Below are positions 4,430-23,007 of a stretch of DNA of 64,000 bases, one piece after another. Made by a program: the position numbers and the translations under genes. Source of the stretch: Thermodesulfobacteriota bacterium (GTDB lineage: Bacteria; Desulfobacterota_D; UBA1144; Nemesobacterales; Nemesobacteraceae); contig CBDAUE010000008.1 of assembly GCA_965200595.1 (NCBI GenBank), positions 97,859 through 161,858 of the forward strand, written 5' to 3'. A model generated the notes under the pieces. The model had not been told where the DNA came from. It saw only the letters and a program-made list of their open reading frames with translations, and did not search any database. The number at the start of each line of letters is the position of its first letter. Positions within the stretch are counted from its first letter, which is position 1.

Positions 4430-4451
4430 CCCTCCTCTTTACTCCCGTGAA

Positions 4452-4478: not shown

Positions 4479-5043
4479 AGGATTCCAGAGACTTGGAGAA
4501 GATCCTGGCGGGGTAGGGTTCATATTCGTGATTCTCTGTGGCAGAAAAGTGAACCTTTGTAGAAAGACTGATAGAGGGATTCGGCAAGCTTGAAGCCTTC
4601 GAGGCTAGGAGTGATTCAAGGGCAATTCCTGAAAGTTGATAAGTCTCTACTGGGGATTATTTAGCTATACCCTGCACCTATTCTATCGGAATCTGTGTCA
4701 TGGGATAACGGCACATTCCGGTCAATCCACTTAGCTGATTGATTCTTCAATAACGATTGGAAAGGGGCTCCGTCTCAAGGAGACTAACCTGGCTACTCGC
4801 ATCTATAGATTTAGGGTGCAACGACCTTCGGAAAAATAAAATCACCCCTTCGCCGTGCCTGAATCTTAAGTAACCAGAGGCCTTTTTAGTGGGTTTCGTG
4901 GTGCCCGATGCATCTACCCACCAGTACAGGGAGAAGACTACGTGAATTCCCGGAGAGGAAGTAGAAAGGTGTTATCACTTATTAAGTGAATAGGGGCAAC
5001 ATGTAATTAGAGTTAAAGATCACCAGGCAGCATCGATCCCGGG

Positions 5044-5832
5044 TCAAACCTTAAAATCATCCCCGTACTGCATCAGCGACAGGTGCGCCCCTAGTGGGTC
5101 ACGCAGGTAAGACATTCTTCCCACGTCAGGAAAATCAAAAGGCTGAACCAAAATGGTGGATCCCAGAGATGCTGCGATCTCGGTTTGCTTATCTATGTCC
5201 TTGGCGGTAATGTATCCGTGCCAGAACGCCTGCTCAACGTCAGGCATTTCTGCGATACCGCCTATTTCAGTGCCATCTACGACGATGTGCCGGTACACAC
5301 CACCTGGGATCTTGTTTTCTTTGTAGGTCCATCCAAAAATGTCACTATAGAATGCTGCTGCTCCAGCACCATCGGGAGTGCTAAGCTCATACCAGCTGAA
5401 TAGGCCAGGGGTACTATAAACTGCTGAATGATTGGTGACTCCTTCCGCTTCACCTTCCGGCTGGTGATACTGCATGACCTGGATCATTCCTCCTTGCGGA
5501 TCTACTATTCCACAAAAAGGCCCAACAGGACTCTCGGTATAGGGAATGAATAAATTCGAAGCATTCTTGTCGGCAAAGGAGCGAGCATCCCGAACAGTAA
5601 CGTAGAACCCCCAGCCAGGAGGGATAGACTCATGGGGTCTTTTCATGAAGCCGGCAGCATTGGTGCCGTCCTCCACGGTGACTACGTGGTACGTGCCGCC
5701 CCCCTCCATTTGCATTTCCATGGAGTAGGGTTTCCAACCAATGACCTTGGCATAGAAGTCTAGAGATTCCGAAGGGTCGATAGCGAGATATTCATTCCAG
5801 CTGATCGCCCCGTGAGTAAGGAAAGGATTCAT
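5044..5832 (-). CDS. VOC-family (glyoxalase fold) protein with two tandem domains. Paralog of 2558..3340.
   Basis: 262 aa, collinear and about 60 % identical to the other VOC ORF (MNPFLTHGAISWNEYLAIDP... / GLFSWYELSTPD...). Confidence 0.75.
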   Translation of the reverse strand: MNPFLTHGAISWNEYLAIDPSESLDFYAKVIGWKPYSMEMQMEGGGTYHVVTVEDGTNAAGFMKRPHESIPPGWGFYVTVRDARSFADKNASNLFIPYTESPVGPFCGIVDPQGGMIQVMQYHQPEGEAEGVTNHSAVYSTPGLFSWYELSTPDGAGAAAFYSDIFGWTYKENKIPGGVYRHIVVDGTEIGGIAEMPDVEQAFWHGYITAKDIDKQTEIAASLGSTILVQPFDFPDVGRMSYLRDPLGAHLSLMQYGDDFKV

Positions 5833-5912
5833 CCTGCGCTATAAGATGAAGTTCGAAAGAGTTGCATAAAAAGGCACTCTCGATATATACCGTGTTTGGG
5901 ACACTTAGGTTA

Positions 5913-6602
5913 CTACCACGGCAAATCGACGGCATAAGCCAAAAAGGACATCATAGGGGACCCTTTCTGATAGATTCCGGCAAGATTGCTCATGAACCGG
6001 GGATGCAGCACTTCCTCCCGATTCAAAGGTGTAGAGATGATATAATGCTTCCGTTTCAGGTCTTCTACACAGGGGTGTTTATTGTCAAAACCCCGAGGTG
6101 CACGTTTGAGGGTTGCGCCCAGGTGTGCCATTTCAAAGCCGGACTCTGCCAATGACTTTTTTAGATTGGTCCATTCTTCGGGATCATCGACGATCAAATT
6201 TCGGATCTTGGTGAGAGTTTTGGTATCCGCCTTCCAAATTCCTCCTGCCGCAAAGCATTCTTCAGGAGATAAGTGCAGGTAAAAGGAGGGAGCAAAGTGT
6301 TCTGTGGCCGACTCATGTCGAAATCTGATCCCAACAAAGGTCTTGAACGGTGACTTGTCTTTGGTAAAGCGAATATCGCGGTGAATCTTGAAGAGTGATT
6401 GCCCCCACTTTGGCTCGGCCCGAGCGTGTGGACTGATTTGATTCAGAAGAGGCGCGAAAGTCTCGATAAACATCAGAAGAGGCTTTTTGATATGATCCTC
6501 GTAACGATGCTTATTGTCTGCAAACCAAGGGCGATTGTTGTTCGTTTTCAGCTCAGTAAGAAAGTCGAACAATTCGGGGCGAATGAACAAGGCAGTTACC
6601 AT
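5913..6602 (-). CDS. DUF2461 (TIGR02453) family protein
   Basis: 229 aa starting MVTALFIRPELFDFLTELKTNNNRPWF. I call this from memory of the conserved N-terminal pattern of that family. Confidence 0.65.
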   Translation of the reverse strand: MVTALFIRPELFDFLTELKTNNNRPWFADNKHRYEDHIKKPLLMFIETFAPLLNQISPHARAEPKWGQSLFKIHRDIRFTKDKSPFKTFVGIRFRHESATEHFAPSFYLHLSPEECFAAGGIWKADTKTLTKIRNLIVDDPEEWTNLKKSLAESGFEMAHLGATLKRAPRGFDNKHPCVEDLKRKHYIISTPLNREEVLHPRFMSNLAGIYQKGSPMMSFLAYAVDLPW

Positions 6603-6770
6603 GTATGTGTAACTTTTCTACGCCTTGCATTTGTCGAAGTCCGGCAGAGGAGAATGAAATCCCCACGATGTTAACAGAATGAAAACTCCCCACAAATGGA
6701 GAATAGTATTTTCCCTGGCAGTCTTCGGCAATAACTGTCGATTTAAGGTGAAGCAGCAGCCAAGCTTTCA

Positions 6771-7961
6771 ATGAAGCCATTTCATATACGCACACGCGCC
6801 ATTCATGCAGGGGAACCTGATCATTCCAGGGGCGGCGCAATTTCCCCGCCCCTCCACATGGCCAACTCCTTTATGGCATCCCCGGATGTGAGTTTCTCTG
6901 CTGAGGATCTGACTCCGGATTCACCATTCATCTATACCCGTTGGGGAAACCCCACCGTTCAAATGCTGGAGCAGCGGCTGGCATCATTGGAAGGTGGAGA
7001 AGAGGGGCTGTGTTTTAGTAGCGGTATGGCAGCTATTACTGGTCTGTTTACCCATCTATTGGGTGCTGGGGATCATATGGTGATGTCTGATGTGGCCTAC
7101 GCTGGAGCTGCCGAGTATACTTTTGACCTACTCCCACAGATGGGCGTCTCTGTCAGCCATGTTGACACGTCAGATCTTAAAGCGGTAAGGCAAGCGCTCC
7201 GACCGGAAACGAAGCTTATTCATATAGAGACTCCTTGCAATCCGATCCTTCGATTGACGGATATAGCAGAAGTAGGAAGATTGGCACATGGGTCTGGTGC
7301 GGCCCTTTCGGTAGACTCAACTTTTTCCTCACCAATTATCACTCGCCCTCTGGAGCTCGGCGCAGATTATGTGATTCATTCTCTGACAAAATATCTCGGT
7401 GGTCATGGAGATGCGCTGGGAGGCGTGATTGTGGGAGACGCTGAAAAGGTCGCCCCGATTCGTACACGTATAGGAATCCATGCGGGAAGTGTGCTTAGCC
7501 CGTTCAATGCATGGTTGATTTCAAGAGGTCTTGCCACGTTACCTCTGAGAGTACGTGCACATTGTGAGAGTGCCGAGTATCTGGCAACCAGGCTGGTTGA
7601 CCATCCCCGTGTGAAAAAAGTCATTTATCCGGGGCTGGACTCTCACCCCCAATGTGAGTTGGCAAAGGCTCAAATGACTCATCCTGGTGGAATGCTCACT
7701 TTTCAGGTTGGTGATGGGGATTCGATGGCGAAGCAGCTCCACAAGAAAATGCAACTAATCAGGTATGCGGTATCGCTGGGGCATGTACACAGCCTGATAT
7801 ACTATCTCGATACGGATAGTATGATGCGAACCTCCTTTCATCTGACAGGAGGTAATCTGGAGTCTTACCGCAGTTATGCCGGAGAAGGCGTGATGCGCTT
7901 TTCGGTAGGGTTGGAGGATCCGGAGGATTTATGGCGCGATCTCTCTCAGGCGCTGGAATAA
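6771..7961 (+). CDS. Cys/Met-metabolism PLP-dependent enzyme (methionine gamma-lyase / cystathionine gamma-synthase / O-acetylhomoserine sulfhydrylase family)
   Basis: 396 aa with TRAIHAGE near the N-terminus and a PLP-lysine motif SLTKYLGGHGD. The overall length and pattern match the trans-sulfuration family. Confidence 0.85.
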   Translation: MKPFHIRTRAIHAGEPDHSRGGAISPPLHMANSFMASPDVSFSAEDLTPDSPFIYTRWGNPTVQMLEQRLASLEGGEEGLCFSSGMAAITGLFTHLLGAGDHMVMSDVAYAGAAEYTFDLLPQMGVSVSHVDTSDLKAVRQALRPETKLIHIETPCNPILRLTDIAEVGRLAHGSGAALSVDSTFSSPIITRPLELGADYVIHSLTKYLGGHGDALGGVIVGDAEKVAPIRTRIGIHAGSVLSPFNAWLISRGLATLPLRVRAHCESAEYLATRLVDHPRVKKVIYPGLDSHPQCELAKAQMTHPGGMLTFQVGDGDSMAKQLHKKMQLIRYAVSLGHVHSLIYYLDTDSMMRTSFHLTGGNLESYRSYAGEGVMRFSVGLEDPEDLWRDLSQALE

Positions 7962-9185
7962 AGCCTTAACAGAAGCCTGCCCGGAGCGGATTGCACCCTC
8001 GATAGTGGCTGGCACCTGCGTGTTAGTCCAGTCACCTGCAAGGAACACATTCGGAATGAGAAGGCAGGGTCCGGGCCTTTTGCACTCATTTTGGGGAGTT
8101 TGCTTGAATGTGGCGCGCTTTTCTTTAACAATTCGGTAGTTCGGGATGGTGTTATGTGTCATGCCTAAGGCTACAGCAACATCTTTCCACAGGATTTGAG
8201 CTATTTCAGAACTGGTCTTCATGACCAAATTGTTTGCAGCACTGACAGTGACCGAGGCGATTTCATCCCTAAAGAAAATCCACTGGGCTGTTCCGTTGAC
8301 AACTCCCAGAAGTGGGGGGTCTATCCAGGGAGGTAACGGCGCGGGGAGAACATAATGAGCATTTACGATAGCACAGTATTCGTCAGGAACAGTGAGGTGG
8401 GGAATCAGCGATGAAGCCACCCAAGGAGGCACAGCAAGGATAACGAAGTCTTTTTTGCTCAGATGGATAATTTCAGTGCCAAAGTCCAGCCCAGCTGCGA
8501 AATCTTCTGCAAAAACAAGATGCCGAAGGACGTTAGAAAAGTGGAGTTTAGCCCCTTGTCTGCGGAGCCATTCCAGAGCGGGAGTGATAAAAGTGTCTGT
8601 CAGGCTTTCTTTGGCTACTCTGGGGCGACATTGTTTTTCCCCTTTCAGGAAGGTTTCCCTCATTACAGACCAAAGAATTTGAGCAGATCCTTCGGCCAAG
8701 TCGGTGTTTAGAGCTCCGACACCAAGCGGTTCCCAGAAGCGTTCGTATAGATGACCGGAATTCCGAACGCATTCGTGGACCGTGTCCGAAGGTCGAGCAA
8801 AAGCCATTCGTAGCACGGAGGAATAATCTCGCAGCCGGGTATTGGGGATTCTCTTCCTTTTGTCTAGCACTGATGAAACATCAGGGGAAACTTCCCAGCG
8901 CTCTCCGGTATGGACGTCAATAAATGGGAAGATTGCCTTTTTCGGACCGATCAGTCCGTCGGTGGCTCCAATTGTTTTCAGGAAACTGTAGACACCTTTG
9001 TTGCCGCTGAGCAAAAGATGGTTGCCATTATCGATCGTTCGGTGAAGATGTCTATCGTGATAGGATCGACATCGCCCACCTGCCAACCGGGCAGCCTCGT
9101 GAAGGTGAACTTCAAACCCATTTTCTATTGAGGCGACCGCGGCTGAAAGCCCCGCAAGACCGGCGCCGATGACATGGACTGTCAC
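7929..9185 (-). CDS. hpnE: Hydroxysqualene dehydroxylase HpnE (FAD-dependent amine-oxidase-like)
   Basis: 418 aa with an N-terminal dinucleotide-binding motif VIGAGLAGLSAA. It is the last gene of the hpnC-hpnD-hpnE operon and its start overlaps hpnD by 4 bp. Confidence 0.8.
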   Translation of the reverse strand: MTVHVIGAGLAGLSAAVASIENGFEVHLHEAARLAGGRCRSYHDRHLHRTIDNGNHLLLSGNKGVYSFLKTIGATDGLIGPKKAIFPFIDVHTGERWEVSPDVSSVLDKRKRIPNTRLRDYSSVLRMAFARPSDTVHECVRNSGHLYERFWEPLGVGALNTDLAEGSAQILWSVMRETFLKGEKQCRPRVAKESLTDTFITPALEWLRRQGAKLHFSNVLRHLVFAEDFAAGLDFGTEIIHLSKKDFVILAVPPWVASSLIPHLTVPDEYCAIVNAHYVLPAPLPPWIDPPLLGVVNGTAQWIFFRDEIASVTVSAANNLVMKTSSEIAQILWKDVAVALGMTHNTIPNYRIVKEKRATFKQTPQNECKRPGPCLLIPNVFLAGDWTNTQVPATIEGAIRSGQASVKALFQRLREIAP

Positions 9186-10030
9186 CTTAGTCCGTTCCGA
9201 ACCATAAGCTGTAGTCTCTCCAGCTTACTGGGTCTTATAGAAGTGGTCCAGTTGGTCCATCCACGAGAGATTAAACGATCCAGAATGTCTTTGTATACGG
9301 CCTTCATTAACGCCGGTGGGCGTGTGCGCCACCAGCCTAACTGGTTCATGAGTCGCTCGGCCTTTTCATACTCGGATATGGCGTACGCGGCAAGAAAATC
9401 ACAAACACCCGCAAACCCTGTTTGCTGAATTAGCGATCCGGAAAGGTCAGGATTCACATCGTACTTACGTAACAGATGGGATGGAATGTATAGCCGGTTA
9501 ATGGCGAGGTCTTCCTTGATATCCCTCAGAATGTTGGTGAGTTGAAAGGCGTTACCTAACGTTACCGCGAAGCGTGGGGCAGGTGACCGAACGAGTCCGA
9601 AGATAGGAATGCAGAGCATTCCTACTGCGCCTGCTACCCGACGACAATAGCGTAGCAGGTCGTCCATGGATTCCATACGCACCTCCATCTTTGCATCGAT
9701 TTCCATCCCCTGGATCAGAGCATGAAATTCTTCCTGCGGTAACTGATAGTGCAGTAAAACCTCTTCAATGGCTTTTGTGACGGGGTGTTGGGGCTTGCCT
9801 TGAAAAAGATTGTCTATTTCCTGATGCCACCCTGACAGCTGACGCTGCTTTGATTCGGGTGAATCATCGGAATCGGCGATGTCATCTACGATTCTGGAAA
9901 AAGCATAAACAGCATAGATAGCCTTGCGGCCCCGCTTGGGCAATATTCGCATTCCCCACCAGAATGATGAATTAGCTTTGCCCACGATATGGTGAACATA
10001 GTCCCAGTTATCCGGTGCTGTGGAGGCCAT
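9182..10030 (-). CDS. hpnD: Presqualene diphosphate synthase HpnD (squalene/phytoene synthase family)
   Basis: 282 aa. The pattern SSFWWGMRILPKRGRKAIYAVYAFSRIVDDIAD is the Asp-rich first motif of the squalene-synthase fold. Confidence 0.8.
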   Translation of the reverse strand: MASTAPDNWDYVHHIVGKANSSFWWGMRILPKRGRKAIYAVYAFSRIVDDIADSDDSPESKQRQLSGWHQEIDNLFQGKPQHPVTKAIEEVLLHYQLPQEEFHALIQGMEIDAKMEVRMESMDDLLRYCRRVAGAVGMLCIPIFGLVRSPAPRFAVTLGNAFQLTNILRDIKEDLAINRLYIPSHLLRKYDVNPDLSGSLIQQTGFAGVCDFLAAYAISEYEKAERLMNQLGWWRTRPPALMKAVYKDILDRLISRGWTNWTTSIRPSKLERLQLMVRNGLR

Positions 10031-10032
10031 TC

Positions 10033-10917
10033 TTACAGAGAAGCTCGATTAGTACCTATAGTACGATCCCAGACGACCCTGGTACTTCCGGAAATCATGC
10101 AGGACAGAAACTGCCAGAAGTTTAGGGTAACCCGTTCTGCCAGAGGGTCTCTCTTGCGAAGTATTTCGGTGAGTTTCCAGGCGATAGCCAGTATCGCAGA
10201 AGCGTTCATAGCGAGACGCCTACTGTGAATCAATTTAGAAAGAGGAGCAGCTTGCTTAAGAAGCGATTCTACTCCGGACAGGCAGTGGTCCAATACCCGA
10301 CGCAGCTCGGGTGAGGAATGCTTCTTGGAAAGGGCACTGAGCGCAGCACCTTCCTGACGCATCCAATCTAGTGGTAAATACACACGGTCAAGCTCCAGAA
10401 AGTCGTTTGAACAATCCTGCAGATGGTTAAGGACCTGTAGCGCATTGCACAGAGCATCCGATGCAGGATATGCTCTGGGAGGCCCGTTGTGTAAATCTAT
10501 CAGGTATCGCCCAACCGGAGCAGCAGACAGAGAACAGTAATTCATGAGCTCCGACCATGAAGCATATCGTTGCTTCGTGGCATCTTGGGAGAACGCACGT
10601 ATGAGATCCTGACAATGGCGTGGGGTGATACCAGTCTTCTGAAGGCTAACACGCATTTCAGCTACTTCTTTGAACAGGACGCTGTCTGCCTCAGAATTAT
10701 CCAGTCCATCGGTAAAAGCAGAAAGTTTGGAGAGTTTTTCTGTATGGTTGAGAGTATCGGTGTCGGCAATGTCGTCAGCTGCGCGAGCGTATCTGTAGAA
10801 TACCTTCACGTGCTTGCGTTCCATTGAACCAAAGAAAACAGATGCAACAGGAAAGTTTTCGTCTCGGGCGGTTTTTCCGGAGGACGGTAGATAGTCCTGC
10901 TCAGTGCGGCTCATCAA
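10033..10917 (-). CDS. hpnC: Hydroxysqualene synthase HpnC (squalene/phytoene synthase family)
   Basis: 294 aa with an ENFPVAS motif followed by YRYARAADDIADTD. It abuts hpnD on the same strand. Confidence 0.8.
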   Translation of the reverse strand: MMSRTEQDYLPSSGKTARDENFPVASVFFGSMERKHVKVFYRYARAADDIADTDTLNHTEKLSKLSAFTDGLDNSEADSVLFKEVAEMRVSLQKTGITPRHCQDLIRAFSQDATKQRYASWSELMNYCSLSAAPVGRYLIDLHNGPPRAYPASDALCNALQVLNHLQDCSNDFLELDRVYLPLDWMRQEGAALSALSKKHSSPELRRVLDHCLSGVESLLKQAAPLSKLIHSRRLAMNASAILAIAWKLTEILRKRDPLAERVTLNFWQFLSCMISGSTRVVWDRTIGTNRASL

Positions 10918-12484
10918 ATTGTCTGGCGATGCAAGGGACAGTTCAAAACAATCGATTTCGCTTACCCGGCATTGGCTGGTATGCCAAATTCCTCAGATTT
11001 GTCAAGAATTAATCTCCGACAAATCATCGTCATGGGAGTTCGCTTTGTGTTCAGATGACATTGGAACCCATAATAATAGAAGGGCGCTTATTATTCCTTT
11101 CTTTCTGATGAAGCTTTATCGCTTTATGAACTGAAGGCTGTGCACTTATTTTGATAGTGACTTAACCGACATGCTGCTGCAAGGTAAAAGCCCTGTACAA
11201 AAAGGAGACAAAGCAGTTTTGAGTCCGTTCTGCCACAGCAAACCCCTTCAAAGAATGGCAGTTGTTTCCGATAATTGTTATAGTCATCGACTGGCTACCA
11301 AAATTTTGTGTGCATTTATACTCTTGGGCTTGGGAGCGTGTGGGGGTACGCCAGACCCAGTCAGTAGTGATTCAATGGAGGACTTCCTGGTCGAGTTACA
11401 GCCAAAATGGGATCATTAGCCTGATTCCACATCACAGTATGCGGAGGTCCAATCCCGGGCCTCCGAGATTTTGATGGATGTGTGAGTTCCCCTCAGGGGA
11501 TATTTTGAGATATTTTGAGCTGAGTACTCAACCGGACAGCTCCATTCTTCCAGATGTTTTCCAGGTTCTTGAGGACATACTTGACAGTAAGTATGAGACA
11601 GGTACAAGTACGAGGGTCCCGATTACGTCGTCCGGTGATTGTGGCAGCTTCAGTTTAGGCCGAGAGGACTTTGTAGGTGGAGACTCTCAAATGAATCTTG
11701 CGCTCGATCGTGTCATCCAAAATCTCCATGCTGGGCAGATTGAAGCTGTCAGTCTTTGTTACTGACATGCTGGTTTCTCCAGATCCACCCAGTGCCATGT
11801 ACCTGATAAAAAATTCTGTCTCTGAGGAATTGCTCCTCTCAGGGCTCGTGCTACAAGAGCTGGATGTGGTGATGATGGGGGTAAAATTGACTTTTTGGGG
11901 CCTGCAGGGAATGTGTGGTGGCAGTAATCGATGTTGGCTTAATGAGGGAATGAAACCGCAGCGATGGGTTCCTTTGCCCCAGCCAGTACATAGGCCACTT
12001 TATATTCTGATGATAGGGCGCTTTCCTGTGGATGCCATGCAAGAAGGACTAATCCCCGGGGTTGCCACCGAGTTGGAGAGCGCTATTAATTCGCTGGACT
12101 CCGAAGTTGAAGCAGTGGTAGAAGCGTTTTCGGAGAATAAAGAGTATGAGGCCACAGGGTGGGACATAGAGACCCAGCACATAGTGAACTATAGAAGTGC
12201 GTCCAAGAGTTATTACTGTCGCACAACCAATGGAACACTGACAGGGAGGGGCCAGCTCCATGAAGAGCTGTCTGATGATAGCTTCGCTGATATTCCCCGT
12301 TTTCTTTCGATTTCGAAGCATCGTGCAGTGAAATCACGAGTGACTTGAGTGATAAGGATGCCGTTCTGCATAAGCACACCCTTAGTGTTTCCTGTATCCG
12401 ACAATCCTGAGTGGGAGGAATGGAACTGCCTGAGGCATGCCCCAAGCTGCACTTTCGGGATGAAGAGGCTAGCTTACAGCCTTC

Positions 12485-13246
12485 GTGCAGTCAGATACGA
12501 AGGCGACTTTACCCTTCGGTTCGAAGGACAAAACTAGGATCCGAAAAGAGCTGGATACTGTAAATCCGGCCTTGGTAGGATCGATTAGGCCGAGACATCC
12601 GTTTTTTTTCGAACGGTTGTCCGGGCGGATTCTGGTGATCGAGGTTTTTGGGCGCTATGCAGGGTACTCGGCCCTGCTACCCACTATGGCTGGTGCTGCC
12701 GATCGGTGTGTGATTCCAGAAGTAGATTTTGATATTGAACACTTGGCAGAGCTGATGGTCTACGACAGAAACCGTCGTAGCAGCAAATACTCTGTGGTAC
12801 TTATTTCGGAGGGAGCAAAAATTAAAGGTGATGCGGCTATGTCGTTCCTGGGCCAGGAGAAGGACCAGTACGGTCATGCGAAGCTTGGCGGGATCGGCGT
12901 ACGCGTAGGAAGCGAGCTTAAGCGCTTGTCGACAAAGTACAACAATGGAAAGCGGATCAACGTCGTGAACCAGCGTTTGGGCTATCTGGTGCGCTGCGGT
13001 GCTCCCGATGCACTGGACTGTATCGTTCCCATGGCTTTCGGTAACCTGGCACTGGATCTCCTTCTGGAGGGCGTATCGGGTAAACTGGTCAATATCCACG
13101 ATGGTATCTACGGAAGCACTTCACTGGAGTGTATCAACGCCCCCCACAAGGTCGTAGATGTCAACAGATTCTATAATCAGGAACGGTTACGTCCAAACTA
13201 TCTGGCCTTTGACGGCGTCCCCCTGTTTGTGATGACAGCGGACTAG
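12485..13246 (+). pseudogene. Truncated phosphofructokinase copy. It has the C-terminal ~205 residues only, fused to an unrelated 48-aa N-terminus. It lacks the GGDD and PKTMDND catalytic motifs.
   Basis: From codon 49 (nt 12630) it is about 99 % identical to nt 35014..35630 of the intact pfk at 34437..35630. Upstream of that point there is no similarity. Confidence 0.7.
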
Positions 13247-13314
13247 ATTCGGACCTGGAAAAGGTCGGATAGCGTGAACCCGCAATTCGGTGTTGGGTAT
13301 AGCTAACTTTCCTG

Positions 13315-14835
13315 ATGTACCTCCAGGCACATCGTTCAAAACTGGTTTCTATGCGAAGTATAGCGCTTGTGTTTGCTTTATTGCTTCCGGCCGCAGTTTT
13401 TGGCCAGGAGGTGTCTGTGAAATCTATCCCTATAGCGACGGGCAGTCAGTTTTTACTGTATCCCTCAGTTTCAGCTGCAATGGGGGGTGTCAGTATTGCT
13501 GTTGATGACCCTTGGGGCGACCCCTTCGTTAATCCCGCCAAGGGTAGTGGCATTTCCAGCAGCATTTTCACAGCGACCCCACAATTCTATTCCATAGGAA
13601 GGTCAACCAGTGGGTTGGGCCACTCCGCCTACACCTTGCCCGTCACCGTGTTAGGTCGCTATAGACAATACTTTGGGGGGATTGGGTTGGCATGGCAGGA
13701 GATGACTCGCCAAGAGCAGAATGACTGTTGCTGGGTATTTTCGGAGTCTTCGACCAGTTCCTTCGCGACCCTGTTGGACGTGGCGCCACAGGGAGGGATC
13801 TCGCGGAGAAACCTGTATCTCACACTATTTGGAGGTAAGGAACTAAGCAAAGGGCTAAGTGTCGGGTTCAGTGTTTTCGCAGCCGGCCTCGCAGGGGTTG
13901 AAGGCGTGCAGCTGCTCTATGGTCAGGGAGATGATGTCGATCAGGAAGGCGGAATGGCGACATACAAGGTCGGCCTCAGTCAGCGATGGGAGAGTGGCCG
14001 CACAGCAGAAGTGATTTTGCAACATAACCGGTTCAAAATGTCCCATACCATTACATCCGTGTTTTGGGATGGAGACTGGGACGATGGTCAGTGGCGCTCG
14101 GAACAGCGTCTGGAGAAGGACGAGACCAATGGCGTAGCCCTCAGGCTTGGTTATTCCCAGCCACTCTCAAAAGGGTGGACCATCGGGGCCCGACTGGTTG
14201 GGGATTGGAAATCACACCCCAAGATTCCCAACTATGACCTGATGCAGATACCGAGAGATCCAGGAAATACCGGAGCCTACAATATAGGGGTAGGTTTTTC
14301 TCGGGTTATCAGAAAGACCACGTTTGCTTTTGATGTGATCTACGAGCCCATTTGGAGTCACACCTGGGCGTACGCTGAAGAGGATATTGTGTTTGATGAT
14401 TTACCTCCCATCAAGGCTGGAGAGAAAACTGTCGAAAACTTCTTTCGCTTCAATAACAGTCACTTTCGGATTGGAGTCCAACAGAAGGGTTCACGGATAG
14501 AGTTTGGGATGGGGCTGAATCTGCACGCAATCAGTTATCGCCTGGAGCAGGAGAATTTTGTCGGTCGATTTGAGCGTACTCTGGATGAATCGTGGGGAGA
14601 GTGGACGCTTACGGCCAGCCTGGGGTATGATTTTAAAGGATTCCTGCTGAAGTACTTGAGTATTCTGACATGGGGCACCGGTCAGCCAGGGATTTTAAAT
14701 CGGGGTTTCTCCGAAGCAGGAGATGGCCTCCTGAATAATAGCAGCTTTGTGGCTGCTCCCGCTGGGGCATTGGACCTGATTGATGCTCGCGTCTGGACGC
14801 ATCGCCTGACACTAGTTGTGCCTTTGACAGAGTAG
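13315..14835 (+). CDS. Second, full-length copy of the putative secreted / outer-membrane protein (paralog of 35698..37254). The likely start is the M at 13351 (signal peptide MRSIALVFALLLPAAVFGQE).
   Basis: 506 aa versus 518 aa. It differs by a 12-aa (36-bp) tandem-repeat unit and 5 substitutions. The upstream 70 bp is also duplicated, so a promoter may be retained. Confidence 0.55.
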   Translation: MYLQAHRSKLVSMRSIALVFALLLPAAVFGQEVSVKSIPIATGSQFLLYPSVSAAMGGVSIAVDDPWGDPFVNPAKGSGISSSIFTATPQFYSIGRSTSGLGHSAYTLPVTVLGRYRQYFGGIGLAWQEMTRQEQNDCCWVFSESSTSSFATLLDVAPQGGISRRNLYLTLFGGKELSKGLSVGFSVFAAGLAGVEGVQLLYGQGDDVDQEGGMATYKVGLSQRWESGRTAEVILQHNRFKMSHTITSVFWDGDWDDGQWRSEQRLEKDETNGVALRLGYSQPLSKGWTIGARLVGDWKSHPKIPNYDLMQIPRDPGNTGAYNIGVGFSRVIRKTTFAFDVIYEPIWSHTWAYAEEDIVFDDLPPIKAGEKTVENFFRFNNSHFRIGVQQKGSRIEFGMGLNLHAISYRLEQENFVGRFERTLDESWGEWTLTASLGYDFKGFLLKYLSILTWGTGQPGILNRGFSEAGDGLLNNSSFVAAPAGALDLIDARVWTHRLTLVVPLTE

Positions 14836-14904
14836 CGATCCAGGGCTACATCCCGCCAGCAACCGGCTATCACAACCGGCGTAAACTATGGTGTAGCCGG
14901 GAGC

Positions 14905-15150
14905 ATGACTCGGTCGGACGACCGAACGAATATGGATACATTATACTGGGCAACGCTAATCGTAGGTGGGGTTTTTGTGCTGGCCGCAATCTTTGGTGGC
15001 GGTGAAACCGATTCTGATGTTGAGGCGGAAGTCGATGTGGACGCTGATGCGGACGTGGACATGGATGCTGATGGGGGTGTTGGTTGGGTAGACCTTTTCT
15101 CGCTCCGAACCATTTTTCTCTTTGCCGCATTTTTTGGTCTGTCAGGTGTT
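14905..15150 (+). pseudogene. NfeD-family gene fragment. It has the first 82 codons only (TM1, the acidic [19 protein letters not shown] stretch, half of TM2), then reads out-of-frame into a pfk fragment.
   Basis: Identical at protein level to residues 1-82 of the ORF at 37324..37908. It diverges exactly at the duplication junction (15150/15151). Confidence 0.65.
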
Positions 15151-15307
15151 CAATACCGAAAACCATGGATAACGACGTCCCGGGAACAGACTACTGCATA
15201 GGGTTCGGGACGTGCGTCACGCGTACCCTGGAACTGTCACATACGCTACGTACCTCTGCTGGATCGCACGAACATTTTTTGATATTTCTGGATACACCGT
15301 AGTCAAA

Positions 15308-15757
15308 TCAGGAATTTCGTGTCTCAGCCATATAGCGCTGAATTCCTGCACAGGTATCCTGCCATCCACGTACGCAGGCTTCGAAAAAGTCCTCTGATCC
15401 CGGGGGAAATCCATCATGAATAACTCTCAACTCTGAGCCTTTTTCATGGGGTAAAACCTCAAACGTAACCACGAATTCTGCATCCACGGGGTAATAGCCG
15501 TCTTTGGCGTAGTACTCAAAGTCGACTAGAACAATTCGGTGTGGGGCGTCAAACTCAGCAATCTTCGAATAGGAGAGGTAGGTCGGGTCATCTTCATCTC
15601 CCCAAGCGGCAATGTAGTATCCGTTTTTTCGGGCCACTACAATTGCGGTGGAAGCCCCCCACCATCCGCGGATAGCCCTTGGGGTGTGCATGGCAGCAAA
15701 GAGGGAGCTCGGAGAGTCTGGGAATATCTCTTTATGGATCAGGCAGGACTTTGACAC
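15308..15757 (-). CDS. SRPBCC-superfamily protein (AHSA1 / activator-of-Hsp90-ATPase-homolog-like)
   Basis: 149 aa. The pattern ...RIVLVDFEY...FEVLPHEKGSELRVIHDGFP...GWQDTCAGIQRYM resembles the AHSA1 subgroup. Confidence 0.6.
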   Translation of the reverse strand: MSKSCLIHKEIFPDSPSSLFAAMHTPRAIRGWWGASTAIVVARKNGYYIAAWGDEDDPTYLSYSKIAEFDAPHRIVLVDFEYYAKDGYYPVDAEFVVTFEVLPHEKGSELRVIHDGFPPGSEDFFEACVRGWQDTCAGIQRYMAETRNS

Positions 15758-15835
15758 GACGGGGTGAGCTTAGTGATCCACTTCAACATATGAAACCAAC
15801 GGGGGTTAAAACGACAACTACAATCTAATATTCCC

Positions 15836-18184
15836 ATGTCCACACCGTCCAGTACCACGCTGAAGGTAACAGGGATGTCGTGTGCCGGTTGTTCTGCGCG
15901 ATTGGAAAAAGTGCTCAAAGAAGTTCCTGGAGTGCAGGATGCGCAGGTAAACTTTACAACGGGTACAGCAACGGTCTCTCAGGAATCAGTCAATAATGCC
16001 GCTCAGTGCGTTGATGCAATAGAACAGGCTGGTTTTGGAGTAGGATATGACTCCATGATCCTTACAGCCGGTAGCAGCACGAAGTTAGTGCCCGCCCTCG
16101 AAACCATGCCAGGCGTTCGTGATGTCCGCACAAGTACAGATGGGGAGGTAAAGGTCAGGTTTATCTCGGGACTTGTAAGCCGTGAGGAAATAGAATCCCA
16201 AGCGCGTGAAGCGGGCTATGTTGCCGAAGCACATGAAGAACCTCTTGGTGATCGCGTTCCGGAATATGTTGCAGAGCGTAAACGCTTTATCATTGCGGCG
16301 ATTCTGAGTGTCCCGATCCTGGTGCTTTCGATGGTCCCCGGAATAGCGTTTTCCGGGTTGCCATTCCTCCTTTTTGTTCTAACCACTCCGGTGGTAGTAT
16401 GGACAGGAAGAGAGTTTTTTGTTCGAGCCGCACAAGCGTTGCGTCACGGCTCTTCTGATATGAATACGTTAGTGGCGCTCGGAGTTGGCACGGCTTATCT
16501 GTACAGTGTAGTGGCCACTTTTTGGCCCTCATGGGTTGCTGGTGCAGGCACCACTCCAGACGTATACTTTGAGGCCGCTGCCGTCATCGTGGCTTTGGTG
16601 CTCTTGGGGAGGCACCTGGAGGGGAGGAGTAAGGCCAAGACTAATGTCGCGCTGGAAGCACTCATGGACCTGCAACCTTCCATTGCTCACGTACTAAGGG
16701 ACGGAGAGGTTGAGGACATCTCGGTTGGTGAAGTGCAAGTGGGAGACAGGATTATTATTCGCCCCGGCGAAAGCATTCCTCTGGATGGTGAGGTAGTAGA
16801 GGGAGTTTCCGCGGTCAATGAGAGCATGATTAGTGGAGAACCCCTGCCTGTTGAGAAGGCTCAGGGAAGCACTGTGCTGAGTGGAACGGTCAATACCCAT
16901 GGCTCTATAGTGGTCCAGGTCACCCAGATCGGTGACCAGACCACACTTCAACAGATTGTTCGCATGACACGCGAAGCACAGGAGCGTAAAGCGCCGGTAC
17001 AGCATCTGGCTGACAAGGTGTGCAGTGTTTTCGTGCCGGTGGTCCTTGGGATTGCTGTAATTACGCTGATTGCGTGGCTGATCTGGGGCCCTGAACCCTC
17101 CTTATCACGAGCACTGGTGGCATTTGTATCAGTACTGATCATTGCATGCCCGTGTGCCTTGGGGCTGGCGACACCAACAGCCATTGTTGTTTCTACAGGG
17201 GTGGGTGCCAAGCGTGGTATGCACTTCAAGGGTGGCGAAACCTTACAGCGGCTGGCTTCGGTTCGTCAGATAGTAATGGACAAGACGGGGACACTGACCG
17301 AAGGGAAACCAACCGTAGAATCAGTAACGACTGCCAATGGTTGGGAGGAAAATGAACTTCTCCGCCTGGCAGCGTCAGCGGAGATTCGCTCCCAGCATCC
17401 TTACGGGAAGGCTATTGTTTCTGAGGCAAAGCAGCGGGGACTGGAGTTATTTCCGGTGTTGACTTTTCAGTCTACAACAGGTCTGGGGATAACGGCGCAT
17501 GTGAATATGCAAGAAGTAGTAATAGGTAACGCTGCCCATCTAATAGAGCATGGAGTGGAGCTGGTAGCGCCAAAGCATGCTACGGTATTGGTTGCTGTGG
17601 ATGGCGTTTTGGCTGGGAAGATTCGACTATTTGACCGAGTTCGATCCTCAGCTCCTTCAGCAGTACAGTCACTAGATACCCTTGGGCTACAAATAACTAT
17701 GGCGACTGGGGATACTGTTGCTAATGCCCGAATGGTGGCAAAGGAGACGGGGATAGAGCGAATGGCTGCGGGGATTTTGCCCGGTGATAAAGCTCAAATT
17801 GTTCGTGAGATGCAAGAAGATGGAGATGGGGTTGCAATGGTAGGGGATGGAATCAATGATACCCCAGCACTTGCTGAGGCAGAAGTCGGAATTGCCTTGG
17901 GTACTGGCAGTCAGGTAGTTGTGGAAGCAGCGGACGTCACATTAATGAGAGATGACTTGCAGGCAGTGGGTGACGCTGTACGGCTGTCTCGAAAAACCAT
18001 GCGAATTGTAAAACATAATCTTTTCTTCGCATTCGCATACAACGTAGTGAGTATTCCTATCGCTGCTGGAGTTTTGTACGGGGCTTTGGGAATGATGCTG
18101 AATCCTATGATTGCCTCGGCTGCGATGGCTGCTTCGAGCGTGTCCGTGGTGACAAACAGCCTGCGACTAAACCGATTCAAGTAG
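15836..18184 (+). CDS. copA: Copper-translocating P1B-type ATPase
   Basis: 782 aa with an N-terminal HMA domain carrying GMSCAGC, the CPC transmembrane motif (CPCALGLATP), the DKTGTLT phosphorylation site and the GDGINDTPAL hinge. Confidence 0.9.
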   Translation: MSTPSSTTLKVTGMSCAGCSARLEKVLKEVPGVQDAQVNFTTGTATVSQESVNNAAQCVDAIEQAGFGVGYDSMILTAGSSTKLVPALETMPGVRDVRTSTDGEVKVRFISGLVSREEIESQAREAGYVAEAHEEPLGDRVPEYVAERKRFIIAAILSVPILVLSMVPGIAFSGLPFLLFVLTTPVVVWTGREFFVRAAQALRHGSSDMNTLVALGVGTAYLYSVVATFWPSWVAGAGTTPDVYFEAAAVIVALVLLGRHLEGRSKAKTNVALEALMDLQPSIAHVLRDGEVEDISVGEVQVGDRIIIRPGESIPLDGEVVEGVSAVNESMISGEPLPVEKAQGSTVLSGTVNTHGSIVVQVTQIGDQTTLQQIVRMTREAQERKAPVQHLADKVCSVFVPVVLGIAVITLIAWLIWGPEPSLSRALVAFVSVLIIACPCALGLATPTAIVVSTGVGAKRGMHFKGGETLQRLASVRQIVMDKTGTLTEGKPTVESVTTANGWEENELLRLAASAEIRSQHPYGKAIVSEAKQRGLELFPVLTFQSTTGLGITAHVNMQEVVIGNAAHLIEHGVELVAPKHATVLVAVDGVLAGKIRLFDRVRSSAPSAVQSLDTLGLQITMATGDTVANARMVAKETGIERMAAGILPGDKAQIVREMQEDGDGVAMVGDGINDTPALAEAEVGIALGTGSQVVVEAADVTLMRDDLQAVGDAVRLSRKTMRIVKHNLFFAFAYNVVSIPIAAGVLYGALGMMLNPMIASAAMAASSVSVVTNSLRLNRFK

Positions 18185-18211
18185 CTAACCCTTCTTGGCG
18201 AGTCCTCCACA

Positions 18212-19813
18212 TTGAGGCAGCCAAATCACCCCGGTAATGCTCTACTGATGAAAGCCATGCAACCTGTACTGGGTACCCAGGCCCAGCGAGAAGCTGACCG
18301 ATTGACCATCGAATCATTTGGTTTGCCTGGCGTGGTCCTCATGGAGACGGCCGGCAGGGGGGTGGCATCCCATATAGAGCATCTTCTGGGGACTGTTGCT
18401 GGAAAACAAGTCGATATACTGGCAGGAAAGGGCAATAATGGAGGGGACGGTTATGTCATAGGCCGTGTGCTCCATTCAAGAGGGGCGAGAGTGCGAATCT
18501 GGGCCATGGGAACTGCTGATGAGATGCCGCCGGATGCAGCGCATCATCGGAGGTTGGTAGAAGAAATGGCTTGCCACACATCCGATGAAGAGTTGCCGAT
18601 ACATCCCTTAACAGGCAGTGTTTCTTTCAGAACGGACCTCTGTGTTGATGCCCTGTTGGGGACAGGGCTATCCAGACCCCTTCGCCCCAATCTCCGCAGC
18701 GTAGTGGAATATCTTAATGCCCAGCGTGCCCCAGTAGTAGCTGTTGATATCCCTACGGGTTTACACGCTGATACAGGTGAGGTCCTTGGCGCGGCGGTTC
18801 GGGCCCAGAGCACGGTGACCATGGCAGCGCTGAAGCCGGGGCTTCTATTGAATGAAGGCCCTGACCATGCTGGCAGTATCAAAACGGTGGATATTGGAAT
18901 TCCGCCGCATGTGTTTAGCGAAGTAGTTGGAAAGCATGGTGGGATTTGGCTTACAACTGACGCCGGAGTAAGGGCACTGATACCTGAACGCCCGGGTGAT
19001 GTACACAAATACTCTGCCGGAATGGCACTGGTCATTGGTGGCTCTCCCGGCCTCACAGGTGCTGCTATCATGGCCTCTCGAGCTGCGGCCCGAGTTGGGG
19101 CTGGCTATGTGACTTGTGCTACTTCTGAGTCTGTTTATCCCATTTTAGCCTCGCGATTTACTGCTACCACAACAATTGCTCTTCCCGAAGAGACTCCTGG
19201 GAATCTAGCATCGGTCCCTAATCATCCAGCATTAGAAGGAACACTGCGTAAAGCCGGGGCCGTTCTTGTCGGACCGGGCTTGGGTCGTGGTAGGGGCACA
19301 CAGTTATTCGTTCGGGACTTTCTGCGAAAGTCTTCGAAACCGGCTGTGATTGATGCTGATGGGCTGAACAGCTGGATAGGTCACACGAAAGAGTTATCTA
19401 GTCACTCCCAGGGACGCTGGATTTTTACTCCACACTCCGGAGAGTTAGATAGGCTGACTGGAAATGCAGATAGAACCAATCGCATTGAATCTGCCCGAAA
19501 ATGGGCCAAGCGATGGAATGTAGTTCTTGTGGCCAAAGGAATGCCGAGCCTCGTGGCTGCTCCTAGCGGGGAAGTATTTATTTGTGGATCCGGAAATAGT
19601 GCATTAGCGACGGCAGGATCAGGGGATGTATTGGCTGGAATGTGTGTGGGACTTTTGGCTCAAGGGCTAACCCCTATAAATGCAGCGGTAGCCGCACTAC
19701 ATTTGGGAGGCCGATGTGCTGATCACTATTGCCGGGACAGGTCGGGACGGGCAATGACAGCTACCGATATGATTGCTGTCGTGGCGCAAGTGTTGAAGGG
19801 AATCGTTCTTTGA
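18212..19813 (+). CDS. nnr: Bifunctional NAD(P)H-hydrate repair enzyme (epimerase + ADP-dependent dehydratase), YjeF N+C fusion
   Basis: 533 aa with the YjeF-N motif GKGNNGGDGYV and a C-terminal carbohydrate-kinase-like half (GPGLGRG...ATAGSGDVLAG). The start may be an internal M (~18248). Confidence 0.85.
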   Translation: MRQPNHPGNALLMKAMQPVLGTQAQREADRLTIESFGLPGVVLMETAGRGVASHIEHLLGTVAGKQVDILAGKGNNGGDGYVIGRVLHSRGARVRIWAMGTADEMPPDAAHHRRLVEEMACHTSDEELPIHPLTGSVSFRTDLCVDALLGTGLSRPLRPNLRSVVEYLNAQRAPVVAVDIPTGLHADTGEVLGAAVRAQSTVTMAALKPGLLLNEGPDHAGSIKTVDIGIPPHVFSEVVGKHGGIWLTTDAGVRALIPERPGDVHKYSAGMALVIGGSPGLTGAAIMASRAAARVGAGYVTCATSESVYPILASRFTATTTIALPEETPGNLASVPNHPALEGTLRKAGAVLVGPGLGRGRGTQLFVRDFLRKSSKPAVIDADGLNSWIGHTKELSSHSQGRWIFTPHSGELDRLTGNADRTNRIESARKWAKRWNVVLVAKGMPSLVAAPSGEVFICGSGNSALATAGSGDVLAGMCVGLLAQGLTPINAAVAALHLGGRCADHYCRDRSGRAMTATDMIAVVAQVLKGIVL

Positions 19814-20397
19814 TCACGATCAAAGAGCTTTGATGCGTGGCCGCGGTGTTGCTCGTTGAAGGAGGGGTTGACAATCTCTCTCCCCCCAATCAATATCCAT
19901 GATGTTGCTCAACCTGGGATTTTTCGCTTCGATCCAATAGTTAGTGATCCTCTCTGCGGATTACAGGTTGTAAAAAGCAGTTATCAGGCTCTACGCTGCC
20001 ATTCTTGAGGATCGAGGTGGTCTTAAGACACCTTCTTCGGTGGTTTCTCGGTCGTTATTACAGATTTTGTTGTGCCGAAGCATTTTTCATTGAAAACCAG
20101 GGCATATACCCCTACGCAAGGGTCTCGTTGTTGTTGGTCTGTGTCGGGGAATTGACAGACCTGAATAGTTTTTCAGTGCGGGAGCGACAAAAATTGTCTA
20201 TTCCGGTGTGGCTGCATTGGCAAAGAACAATAAAGTGCTGGAGAACAATAGCCCCTGGCAAAATCCCTGGCGAGACGTTGCCACAGTCTGCCATCTTGTC
20301 ATACCTCACGACACTGGTACGTTTTTAGTTCTTACCGTCAATTGATACAACGCAGCACATACTGCAAGAACAATAAGACAAACTGACAACCTGAACT

Positions 20398-23007
20398 ATG
20401 AACCTTGACAGATTTACAGTAAAAGCGAAAGAAATTGTCCAGAGTGCCCTGTCAATTGCCGCGGCAAACCAGCACCAGGGGCTGGAGCCACCCCATGTGA
20501 TGGAGGCCTTGTTGGCTGAGAAAGGCGGCGTTGGCGGTGCAATTCTCCAGAAGCTTGATGCCAGCATGCCACTCGTAGATGTGGCTGTAAAAGAAGCGAT
20601 GAAAAAGCTCCCCAAAGTCTCGGGAAGCACAGTATCTGGTACTTATCTGGGAGAAGGGATCAAGCAGGTTTTCGACCTGGCTTCCAAAGCAGCTGCATCG
20701 ATGCAGGACCAATATGTCAGCAGTGAACACTTGCTAATGGGAATTGCCTCATCGGAAACGCCACTGGGACGCTCCCTCCGAAAGCAGGGCATCACAAAGA
20801 AAAGCATCGCCAATGTATTGAAAGGCATTCGCGGTGGTCAACGGGTCACTGATCCGCACGCCGAAGACAGATATCAGGCTTTAGAGCGCTTTACGCGCAA
20901 TCTGAATGACATGGCCCGAAAAGGCAAGATCGATCCGGTGATCGGAAGAGACGAGGAAATTCGTCGAGTTCTTCAAATTTTATCCCGACGCAAAAAGAAT
21001 AATCCTGTTCTGATTGGTGAAGCAGGAGTCGGCAAAACGGCTATTGCCGAGGGGATCGCGATAAGGATCGTACAGGGGGACGTTCCAGAAGGCCTTAAAT
21101 CCAAGGTGGTCCATACCCTCGATATGGGTGCCATGATCGCCGGAGCAAAGTATCGTGGGGAATTCGAAGACAGGCTGAAGGCAGTGATAAAGGAGGTGGT
21201 CGATTCAGATGGAGAAATCCTTCTTTTCATCGATGAGATTCACACACTGGTAGGGGCTGGGAGCGCTGAAGGGGCCATGGATGCGGCAAATATCCTGAAG
21301 CCCGCCTTGGCAAGGGGAGACTTGCGGACAATAGGTGCAACGACGATCGATGAGTATCGCAAGCATCTCGAGAAAGACAAGGCCCTGGCACGTCGTTTCC
21401 AGACCATAATGGTGGATGAACCCACAATTGAAGACACAGTCTCCATTCTTAGGGGCATCCGTGAGCGCTATGAAGTGCATCACGGGGTTCGAATTAATGA
21501 TGAAGCAATCGTGGCAGCTGCAGAGCTGAGCCAGCGGTACATAACCGATCGCTTTTTACCGGACAAAGCCATTGACCTCGTTGATGAAGCTATGGCAAAG
21601 CTGCGAACCGAAATTGACTCCATGCCAGAGGAGATCGATGGACTGGAACGCCAGATCAGGCAGCTGGAGGTAGAGCGTGAAGCTGTTAAGAGAGATAATG
21701 ATGAAGCGAAGCTTCAACATATCAATAACCAGTTGGCGAATCTGGAAACAGAGCGAACGGCGCTCCACCTTCGTTGGGGAGAAGAAAAACAGCTCATTCA
21801 GGATATCCGAATGGCAAAAGAGGAAATAGAAAAGCTGGGCATTAAGGCCGAGGAAATGCTGCGTAACAGCAGGTTTGCCGAGGTAGCACAGATTCAGTAT
21901 GGTCAGATTCCCGGTCTGGAGAGAAAGATCAACGAAGCCCAGGCCAAGCTTAATGAGATTCAATCTCAGGGGGCTTTGCTGAAGGAGGAGATTGGGGGCG
22001 AAGATATTGCCGAAATAGTTTCCAAATGGACTGGGGTGCCGGTATCTCGTATGATGGAAAGTGAGCGCACACGACTGGTTCGAATTGAAGAAGAACTCAA
22101 AAAGCGGGTGATCGGTCAGGACGAGGCCATTACAACAGTAGCGCATGCAGTTCGTCGTGGGCGTGCAGGGCTACAGGAAGTGGGGCGTCCCATAGGGTCA
22201 TTCATCTTCCTGGGTTCGACCGGAGTAGGAAAGACAGAGTTGGCAAAAACGCTCGCACTATTCCTCTTCAACAAGGAAAATGCGCTGGTACGAATTGATA
22301 TGAGTGAGTATCAGGAGCGCCATAGTGTCAGCCGCCTCGTGGGTGCCCCTCCGGGATATGTAGGATTCGAAGAAGGAGGACAGCTGACAGAAGCGGTAAG
22401 AAGACGCCCCTATTCGGTGGTCCTGCTGGATGAGATCGAGAAGGCCCACCCAGAGGTTTTTAACACGCTTCTGCAGGTTCTGGATGACGGCGTGCTGACA
22501 GATGGAAAGGGTAGAACCACCGACTTCAAGAATACCATCATCATAATGACCAGCAACCTGGGGTCAGAATTGCTGATGAAGAAAATGGAGTCTTCAGACG
22601 GAGACCTGACACCCCAGGAGCAAAAAAGATTGAAAGAGTCCGTGCTCCAGCTTCTCAAAAGTCGTTTGCGTCCGGAGTTCCTCAATAGGATCGATGAGAC
22701 CATTCTGTTTAATGCCCTCGGCAAGTCTGTCATTGAAGAGATTGTCAGAAATCAGTTTGCACGCCTCCAGGAAATGGTTCTAAAGACTCATGGCGTAGAA
22801 CTGAAGCTTGCAAACGATGCCGTTTCGTTCCTTGCTGAAAAGGGGTTTGAGCCAGCCTTTGGAGCACGCCCTGTAAAGCGGGTATTGCAGCGCGAAGTAG
22901 CGAATAAGCTCGCTGAGGGAATACTGTCGGGTTGGGTCCAGCCGGGACATCATATTACGGTGCGCATGGCCCCGGACAAATCAGGGATTGTGCTGGAAAC
23001 ATCATGA
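20398..23007 (+). CDS. clpB: ATP-dependent chaperone ClpB
   Basis: 869 aa with two AAA+ modules ([13 protein letters not shown] and [15 protein letters not shown] Walker A motifs) separated by a long coiled-coil middle domain. The N-terminus is the Clp-N domain. Confidence 0.95.

Follow-up and report, generated by a model that had tools for sequence, protein, structure and literature searches.

The 64-kb window analysed here, by which we mean the whole stretch of DNA under study (64,000 nucleotides, positions 97,859 to 161,858 of contig CBDAUE010000008.1 from a Thermodesulfobacteriota bacterium), contains a locus in which pfk, an open reading frame (ORF) of 518 aa for a predicted outer-membrane β-barrel, and a gene for a 194-aa membrane protein precede a gene of the SPFH/Band7 family. 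Part of this row of genes is present a second time, 22.4 kb away and at a non-tandem position, as a copy whose two parts stand in exchanged order. The window is accordingly described as the succession of blocks L, B′, A′, M, A, B and R, and the features on which the argument depends are the following.

12630-15150, plus strand: block B′ of the copy, equal to parental 35014-37569 (the 3′ portion of pfk with its final ~204 codons, the spacer behind it, the complete barrel ORF, and codons 1-82 of the 194-aa gene)
15151-15278, plus strand: block A′ of the copy, equal to parental 34888-35015, an internal pfk segment placed after B′
15139-15162, plus strand: closure join at 15150/15151 (parental 37569/34888), no direct microhomology
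15279-34887, no strand: region M between the repeats, with AHSA1, P-type ATPase, YjeF, ClpB, SMC, an ABC/RND export set and the 5′ part of pfk
34888-37569, plus strand: parental 2682-bp unit, made up of blocks A (34888-35013) and B (35014-37569) and spanning pfk (34437-35630), the 518-aa barrel ORF (35698-37254) and the 194-aa gene (37324-37908)
35014-35015, plus strand: TT opening point of the unit, found at both outer ends of the copy

The window was compared with itself by blastn, and the junctions were then read off nucleotide by nucleotide. Three matches in the same orientation cover the copy: 12630-14286 with 35014-36669 (99.4% identity), 14248-15150 with 36667-37569 (98.5%), and 15151-15278 with 34888-35015 (99.2%). 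The block order is B-A in the copy and A-B in the parent, exactly as an earlier note on this DNA had described it, and a simple collinear duplication is ruled out. At the internal join, parental 37569 sits directly on 34888 with no shared base, and this join is internal to the copy, with 128 bp between it and the right end. The copy starts at parental 35014 and stops at parental 35015, and its outer ends thus overlap by 2 bp, the TT common to both. The earlier note had rightly traced both outer ends to one parental point, but it placed a 3-bp gap there and ended the second block at 15273/35010; the match in fact continues past a mismatch at 15274 to 15278/35015. The boundary sequences of the copy are ggaTTCTGG and ACATTTTTTGAT. 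In length, the copy measures 2649 bp against the 2682 bp of the parental unit, and the two differ by 20 substitutions, a 1-bp indel (at 13284) and a 36-bp indel. As a separate observation, the opening point (35007-35016) lies within GAACGTTTTC, which fits the interrupted palindrome GAANNNNTTC; a blunt central cut would fall 2 bp left of the boundary, and the fit is probably a coincidence.

The duplicate is real, and its topology and junctions are exact. Both loci, with the same spacing and all three junctions, are found on the long contig ERZ25068762 ctg149077_4x_l from ENA (records L006, L007 and L010, with the junctions on L007). The left junction recurs on a 2.87-Mb circular ENA contig (L009; ERZ25068043 ctg12662_232x_c, record 2159994-2181412, 232x), and the right junction A′/M is present in the Logan short-read contigs L001 and L002, which come from other runs, end 46 and 35 bp within the repeat, and both carry the copy-specific base at 15274. 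Another Logan contig (L008) corresponds exactly to block B′. The flanks vary between sources by strain-level single-nucleotide polymorphisms (SNPs), for example gggcGga versus gggcAga. Since the same junctions recur in independent assemblies, each with its own flank SNPs, the copy is not an assembly chimera, and the caveat to that effect in the earlier note can in practice be set aside. Furthermore, 10 substitutions and one indel distinguish copy from parent as fixed differences in each of the two strains in which both loci are present. The duplication thus predates the divergence of these strains, in agreement with the previous view that it is not brand new.

The polarity of the event is established by comparison with other genomes. 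The order pfk, barrel ORF, 194-aa gene and Band7/SPFH is kept in distant metagenome-assembled genomes (MAGs) of Rhodothermales (L003 and L005) at ~50% protein identity, and within the window intact pfk and 194-aa genes are found only at 34.4-37.9 kb. This conserved synteny identifies the 34.4-39.2 kb locus as ancestral and as the parent of the copy, the role that it had already been assigned. Similarly, the target site can be recognized in two related species, whose gene order SMC - ClpB - ... - P-type ATPase - AHSA1 - SQS_PSY - SQS_PSY - amine oxidase matches the L and M flanks of the window. In these relatives, the spacer between AHSA1 and the first SQS_PSY gene measures only 93 bp (L030-L032) or 29 bp (L033), whereas in the window it measures 4.39 kb, composed of an orphan region X of 1.7 kb, the copy of 2.65 kb, and 29 bp. 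The adjacency of AHSA1 and SQS_PSY in both species shows that 12630-15278 is an insertion into a formerly short spacer. The orphan region adjoins it on the left.

10918-12629, no strand: orphan region X, adjoining the insert on its left; it is missing from the short spacer of the ancestral arrangement, has no homologues outside the species and varies by indels between strains

The indels that distinguish strains in region X, of 10, 1 and 11 bp, are frameshifting, and the region therefore looks non-coding or decaying. Because the start of B′ is intact, region X either predates the copy or came along with it. Among its variants are a 10-bp tandem duplication that only the window shows (11499-11508) and, in L009, a deletion of 11 bp (12182-12192); the region also contains a lipoprotein-like signal (ORF 11171-11419).

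The gene content of the copy is as follows.

13315-14835, plus strand: intact 506-aa paralogue with signal peptide and predicted outer-membrane β-barrel, of an uncharacterised family
12485-13246, plus strand: gene fragment, a chimeric 253-aa ORF in which 48 flank codons are fused to the C-terminal ~204 PFK residues
14905-15201, plus strand: fragment of the 194-aa membrane-protein gene, its first 82 codons continuing out of frame into the pfk piece

One complete gene has thus been duplicated, with 506 aa in the copy and 518 aa in the parent. The chimeric 253-aa ORF is catalogued as protein P0126 of the 161,858-bp contig (NCBI/ENA sources), and the 82 codons, the out-of-frame fusion and the pfk peptide quoted in the earlier note are all correct. 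In contrast, the name nfeD that it had given to 37324-37908 is not supported, as no NfeD match is obtained in Pfam or NCBIfam even at E = 10. The 194-aa protein encoded there has an acidic D/E-rich stretch and a conserved position upstream of the SPFH/Band7 gene. The barrel protein itself has no match in Pfam or NCBIfam, and its family is widespread and unannotated, with members in Rhodothermales, KSB1 and Gemmatimonadetes. Since gene callers differ in the start codons that they choose, look-ups by exact match returned nothing for the 506-aa and 518-aa ORFs or the SQS294 protein, and the matches were recovered through cluster listings. An AlphaFold2 model built from 43 sequences (pLDDT 75, pTM 0.76) contains a signal peptide and a large β-barrel of ~18 predicted strands, for which Foldseek against the PDB returned generic outer-membrane barrels only (e.g. 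FadL/TodX and TonB-dependent receptor barrels; TM ≤0.43). The duplicated gene is predicted, from this model, to encode an outer-membrane β-barrel.

As to hallmarks of mobile elements, neither the scanned ORFs nor the precomputed gene tables, two sources that between them span most of the window, revealed a domain of a transposase, an integrase or any other recombinase, and no serine-type or IS110-type recombinase gene was seen in the 64 kb. The copy has no detectable terminal inverted repeats, its ends sharing only the 2-bp TT, and the absence of such hallmarks noted previously is thus upheld. The window holds no tRNA genes and no Rfam matches, and promoter and terminator scans gave nothing relevant. 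The circle junction is distinct from the insertion ends, which does not fit an insertion sequence; an integron cassette would demand an attC with a GTTRRRY core at its boundary and an IntI/attI platform, but no such site is present at the boundaries and no integrase gene was found in the window. The locus therefore fails the tests for an insertion sequence, an integron cassette and an IS26 unit. The gaac(g) microhomology suspected earlier at both ends does not coincide with the junctions, and donor and target resemble each other no more than expected by chance, with 36% of random 80-mer pairs scoring equally well and no site similarity to indicate a recombinase. Direct microhomology and extended donor/target similarity were accordingly rejected. 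A 9-mer, CATTTTTTG, common to 15128 and 15273 was also dropped, as ~20 such pairs are expected by chance. The TT is identical at both outer junctions, and without the empty site an exchange and a duplication of these two bases look alike.

The closure join differs from the outer junctions in having a candidate template within the unit itself.

35110-35134, plus strand: inverted bridge segment T, pairing with the end of B (37557-37569) and the start of A (34888-34898), duplicated at 12726-12750
37558-37585, plus strand: 7-bp hairpin CTGTCAG/CTGACAG, whose loop holds the parental right breakpoint 37569/37570 (p ~0.018 per site), a weak lead

The closure sequence, CTGTCAGGTGTT joined to CAATACCGAAAA, matches the reverse complement of the contiguous stretch 35110-35133 at 19 of 24 positions, including a perfect 10-nt core, GTGTT/CAATA, that runs across the join; the repeat finder had placed the 24-nt arm of this bridge at 35111-35134. 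Three of the five non-matching positions are G-T pairs. When 4000 joins of a 2682-nt unit were simulated as a null, none reached a score of 19 and 0.15% reached 18, and the next-best match to the closure join in the whole window scores 17. The pairing geometry fits a ligatable nick, with 37569 on 35122 and 34888 on 35121. In addition, the start of A is complementary at 14 of 15 positions to 35413-35427 (p ~0.0013), while of the four breakpoint sites only the hairpin at 37569 is mildly unusual, its p of ~0.018 being the value before correction for four sites. A search for bridging templates at the two outer junctions gave background-level matches only. The closure join was therefore probably not made by blunt end-joining, and the inverted bridge, as read from the sequence, suggests either template switching or self-splinted single-strand annealing.

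How, then, did the permuted copy arise? For the earlier note, a circle, template switching and a slice of a tandem array were all candidates. The length of one unit with a 2-bp overlap implies an intermediate one unit long, that is, either a circle or a unit cut twice at the same site of a tandem array, and it strongly favours such a unit-length intermediate, as the chance for a random slice of a tandem array of the 2682-bp unit to have ends within 2 bp of each other is ~0.1%. The best explanation, which we consider likely, is that 34888-37569 formed a unit-length circle that was inserted by illegitimate recombination without any mobile-element enzyme; the circle, the way in which its join was formed and the chemistry of its integration are what we infer from the junctions. 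According to this model, the 2682-bp chromosomal unit of the pfk, outer-membrane-barrel, 194-aa and SPFH locus would have closed on itself, and the join 37569/34888 would have been made either by a double template switch through 35110-35134 or by ligation of a single strand on its own internal splint. The circle would then have opened at TT 35014-35015 and would have been inserted, independently of homology, into the spacer between the AHSA1-like and squalene-synthase-like genes 22.4 kb away, the outcome being an extra intact and conserved barrel gene together with two dead gene fragments.

Several observations weigh against this explanation. Neither a circle, nor a tandem duplication, nor an empty site has been observed, and the parent is single-copy in the window and in L006/L010. 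As to insert-free strains, an exact-pattern scan of JGI metagenomes with the right-flank sequence gave no match, a protein-guided scan with AHSA1 gave only relatives of ≤54% identity, and exact-protein look-ups of the flank genes returned only contigs that carry the insert. The 2-bp overlap could reflect a conservative crossover in a T run, a 2-bp staggered cut, or fill-in. The inspection for recombinase and Ku/LigD-type genes covered 64 kb of the genome. Attention was drawn to the bridge segment only after the fact, by a list of repeats, although the simulated null against which it was judged is conservative. Finally, region X and the copy may have arrived in one event, in which case that event was more complex than the insertion of a single circle.

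A more specific version of the circle model takes the bridge literally: the single strand 34888-37569 would have folded so that its ends annealed on the internal stretch 35110-35134, and after trimming, ligation and conversion to duplex it would have been inserted illegitimately at the distant spacer, mobilising a gene-sized segment with no enzyme of a mobile element. We regard this version as unlikely. Should it be true, the locus would preserve the traces of a general route to dispersed gene duplicates that does without mobile elements.

The final topology would be identical if 34888-37569 had first been duplicated in tandem, one unit had been freed by two cuts at the same site (e.g. by a sequence-specific nuclease) and captured at a double-strand break between AHSA1 and SQS, and the tandem had later collapsed, all without a free circle. 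Tandem duplications with little or no homology at the junction are common in bacteria, as known from the Roth and Neidle laboratories, which counts for this route. Cuts at the same site would account for the unit length, fill-in of a 2-nt overhang would account for the 2-bp repeat at the ends, and the donor site lies in the partly symmetric context of GAACGTTTTC (GAANNNNTTC). However, a blunt GAANN^NNTTC cut would be predicted at 35011/35012 and not at 35013-35015, no tandem form is seen in any assembly, and both an extra nuclease and a break-capture step are required; we judge the route unlikely. A single replicative event of microhomology-mediated break-induced replication or fork stalling and template switching (MMBIR/FoSTeS) is a slightly poorer candidate and, in our estimate, likewise improbable. 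Here, a fork broken at the spacer would have copied 35014-37569, hopped via the inverted segment T to 34888-35015, and gone back to the spacer. Template switching uses microhomology of just the type seen in the inverted bridge of the closure join, the TT at entry and exit could represent 2-nt priming microhomologies, the mechanism has been discussed for mammalian cases (PMC7450558), and switching at short inverted repeats can yield extrachromosomal DNA (PMC10766183). Yet the exit at the very nucleotide of entry (35015 versus 35014) would be a ~0.1% coincidence unless the template was already circular or tandem, and the outer junctions show no bridging matches above background.

Turning to enzymes, a 2-bp overlap with no larger target duplication and no terminal inverted repeats is the footprint of serine-type and IS110-type recombinases. 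Such an enzyme, encoded elsewhere and acting on a 2-bp core, might have captured a chromosomal circle by recombining a pseudo-donor with a pseudo-target, and the same TT at both junctions, the lack of any further target duplication and the lack of terminal inverted repeats all agree with this. We nevertheless consider capture of this kind very improbable, given that the 64-kb window contains no recombinase gene that was found, that donor and target share no motif beyond chance, and that the unit bears no element functions. Least credible of all is an assembly artefact, either a chimeric contig or a strain-mixing error. The window does come from a metagenome-assembled contig (161,858 bp), and the related assembly L009 is arranged differently, but the junctions are identical in the ENA contig, the 2.87-Mb genome and the Logan contigs, each with its own SNPs, and fixed copy-specific SNPs are common to the strains. 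Sister-chromatid exchange, or a 19.7-kb circle of M and A, could also yield L-B-A-M-A-B-R, but only in three events or more, and was rejected because the small circle requires two.

The insertion of a unit-length circle can be compared with systems already described. Dispersed gene duplicates in bacteria are usually ascribed to mobile elements or to horizontal transfer. Copy-out/paste-in insertion sequences, IS26 translocatable units and integron cassettes share with the present locus a circular form that is inserted as a linear permuted copy; unlike them, the present locus lacks a transposase or integrase gene, terminal inverted repeats, an attC and any IS copy. Moreover, circles of insertion sequences integrate at their joined ends, whereas the circle here opened 126 bp from its closure join. 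Joins that form independently of short homology are known in bacterial tandem duplication, and the present case resembles tandem duplication and loop-out in having a join without direct homology, in the unit-length circle that collapse of a tandem would be expected to release, and in the later homologous recombination between the copies. Template switching associated with quasipalindromes also occurs in bacteria. Switching at short inverted repeats is likewise the basis of the ODIRA model in yeast (PMC10766183). Both resemble the present locus in using a short inverted microhomology near the breakpoint as a temporary template, with extrachromosomal DNA among the possible products; they leave inverted sequence or inverted triplications, whereas the present product is a direct join, for which 5 nt or fewer would have been copied from the inverted template. 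The models of Mahan & Roth, as they are cited in PMC2568036, comprise tandem duplication, loop-out of a circle and reintegration. In that account, reintegration is normally homologous and at the parent locus, whereas here it would be ectopic and illegitimate with a 2-bp overlap, and no tandem precursor is preserved.

The closest parallels are circle-mediated duplications in mammals, namely the colour-sidedness alleles of cattle KIT (Durkin et al. 2012, in the form in which PMC7450558 cites that work) and the human 'cSDPs' (Chicote et al. 2020, PMC7450558), both described as having a B-A flip, a single opening point, microhomologies of 0-2 bp and a non-tandem site. The present copy shares with both the change from A-B to B-A in the same orientation, the one opening point, the non-tandem position, the 0-2 bp of breakpoint microhomology and the absence of mobile-element machinery. 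Judged as a cSDP, it has the B-A order, a single parental end point and no extended breakpoint homology, and its acceptor site is intact in two relatives, as judged by the adjacency of AHSA1 and SQS, while the empty site was not found at the nucleotide level. It differs in being bacterial, in its size of 2.7 kb as opposed to tens to hundreds of kb, in breakpoints that do not lie in interspersed repeats, and in the inverted bridging match inside the unit. This bridge at the closure join is the new and testable detail relative to known circle-mediated duplications, and it provides a concrete clue to how the circle may have closed. Keyword searches of the literature library consulted turned up no permuted bacterial duplicate free of mobile elements, which is weak negative evidence. 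The locus presents an ordinary housekeeping segment copied to a new site via a unit-length, almost certainly circular intermediate, resolved to the nucleotide and in several independent assemblies.

The consequences of the duplication in nature can also be followed, in the form of a conserved extra outer-membrane barrel gene and of exchange between the copies. The 36-bp indel belongs to the later history of the locus.

36658-36693, plus strand: 36-bp (12-aa) tandem repeat unit, private to the parental ORF of this window, in a low-confidence loop of the model

The indel that the earlier note had reported is present, but its polarity must be corrected: the tandem repeat (PRDPGNTGAYNI / PRGPGNTGAYNV) is missing from the window copy, from both the copy and the parent of the ENA contig, from a Logan contig and from the 2.87-Mb genome, and it is therefore a tandem insertion private to the window's parental copy. 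The two units agree to only 88%, with six private substitutions around them, and a divergent allele is the probable source of this stretch of the parental gene. The private substitutions and the 12-aa loop duplication cluster at 36631-37030 (codons ~312-445 of the parental ORF). Between strains, the copy shows no nonsynonymous and two synonymous changes, as opposed to seven and three, respectively, in the parent in addition to the loop insertion. The original gene thus varies faster than its duplicate, and the reason may be the import of an allele or diversifying selection acting on a surface loop. Patches with copy-type bases in the parent of one strain suggest gene conversion.

The direct 2.5-kb repeats have exchanged sequence since the duplication, and one assembled population has apparently deleted the 22.4 kb between them. 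In L009, the blocks stand in the order L - B - R, so that the equivalent of window 3380-15150 leads directly into that of 36667-47255, and the repeat is chimeric, copy-like to 36411 and parent-like from 36754, as is expected of recombination between B′ and B. The missing 22.4 kb comprises AHSA1, the ATPase, YjeF, ClpB, SMC, the ABC/RND set and full-length pfk. The five region-M proteins that the consulted protein collection contained, namely full-length PFK, a 427-aa RND adaptor, a 170-aa and a 133-aa protein, and YjeF, have no relative of ≥90% identity on the 2.87-Mb contig, whereas proteins of L and R do have such relatives there. The arrangement of L009 represents either a natural repeat-mediated loss of 22.4 kb, including smc, clpB and pfk, or an assembler jump that dropped the loop; a natural loss would be a further consequence of the duplication. 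The notion that L-B-R is the ancestral state, or the product of a direct illegitimate deletion, was rejected, as the repeat is a chimera of copy and parent.

Beyond the copy itself, the segment 7929-10917 holds two SQS_PSY genes followed by an amine-oxidase gene, a set that lies directly downstream of the AHSA1-like gene in the relatives (L030-L033) and that resembles a squalene synthesis set of the HpnC/HpnD/HpnE type. With 4.4 kb of inserted DNA now separating this set from the AHSA1-like gene, its promoter context has changed. Lastly, the window contains three older internal similarities, diverged to 71-78% identity: 41263-41780 with 44019-44536, in two adjacent M16 peptidase genes; 61552-61889 with 63240-63578, in two arylsulfotransferase genes; and 2805-2924, in a glyoxalase-domain gene, with 5294-5413, in the region near 5.3 kb. 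These look like ordinary ancient paralogy.

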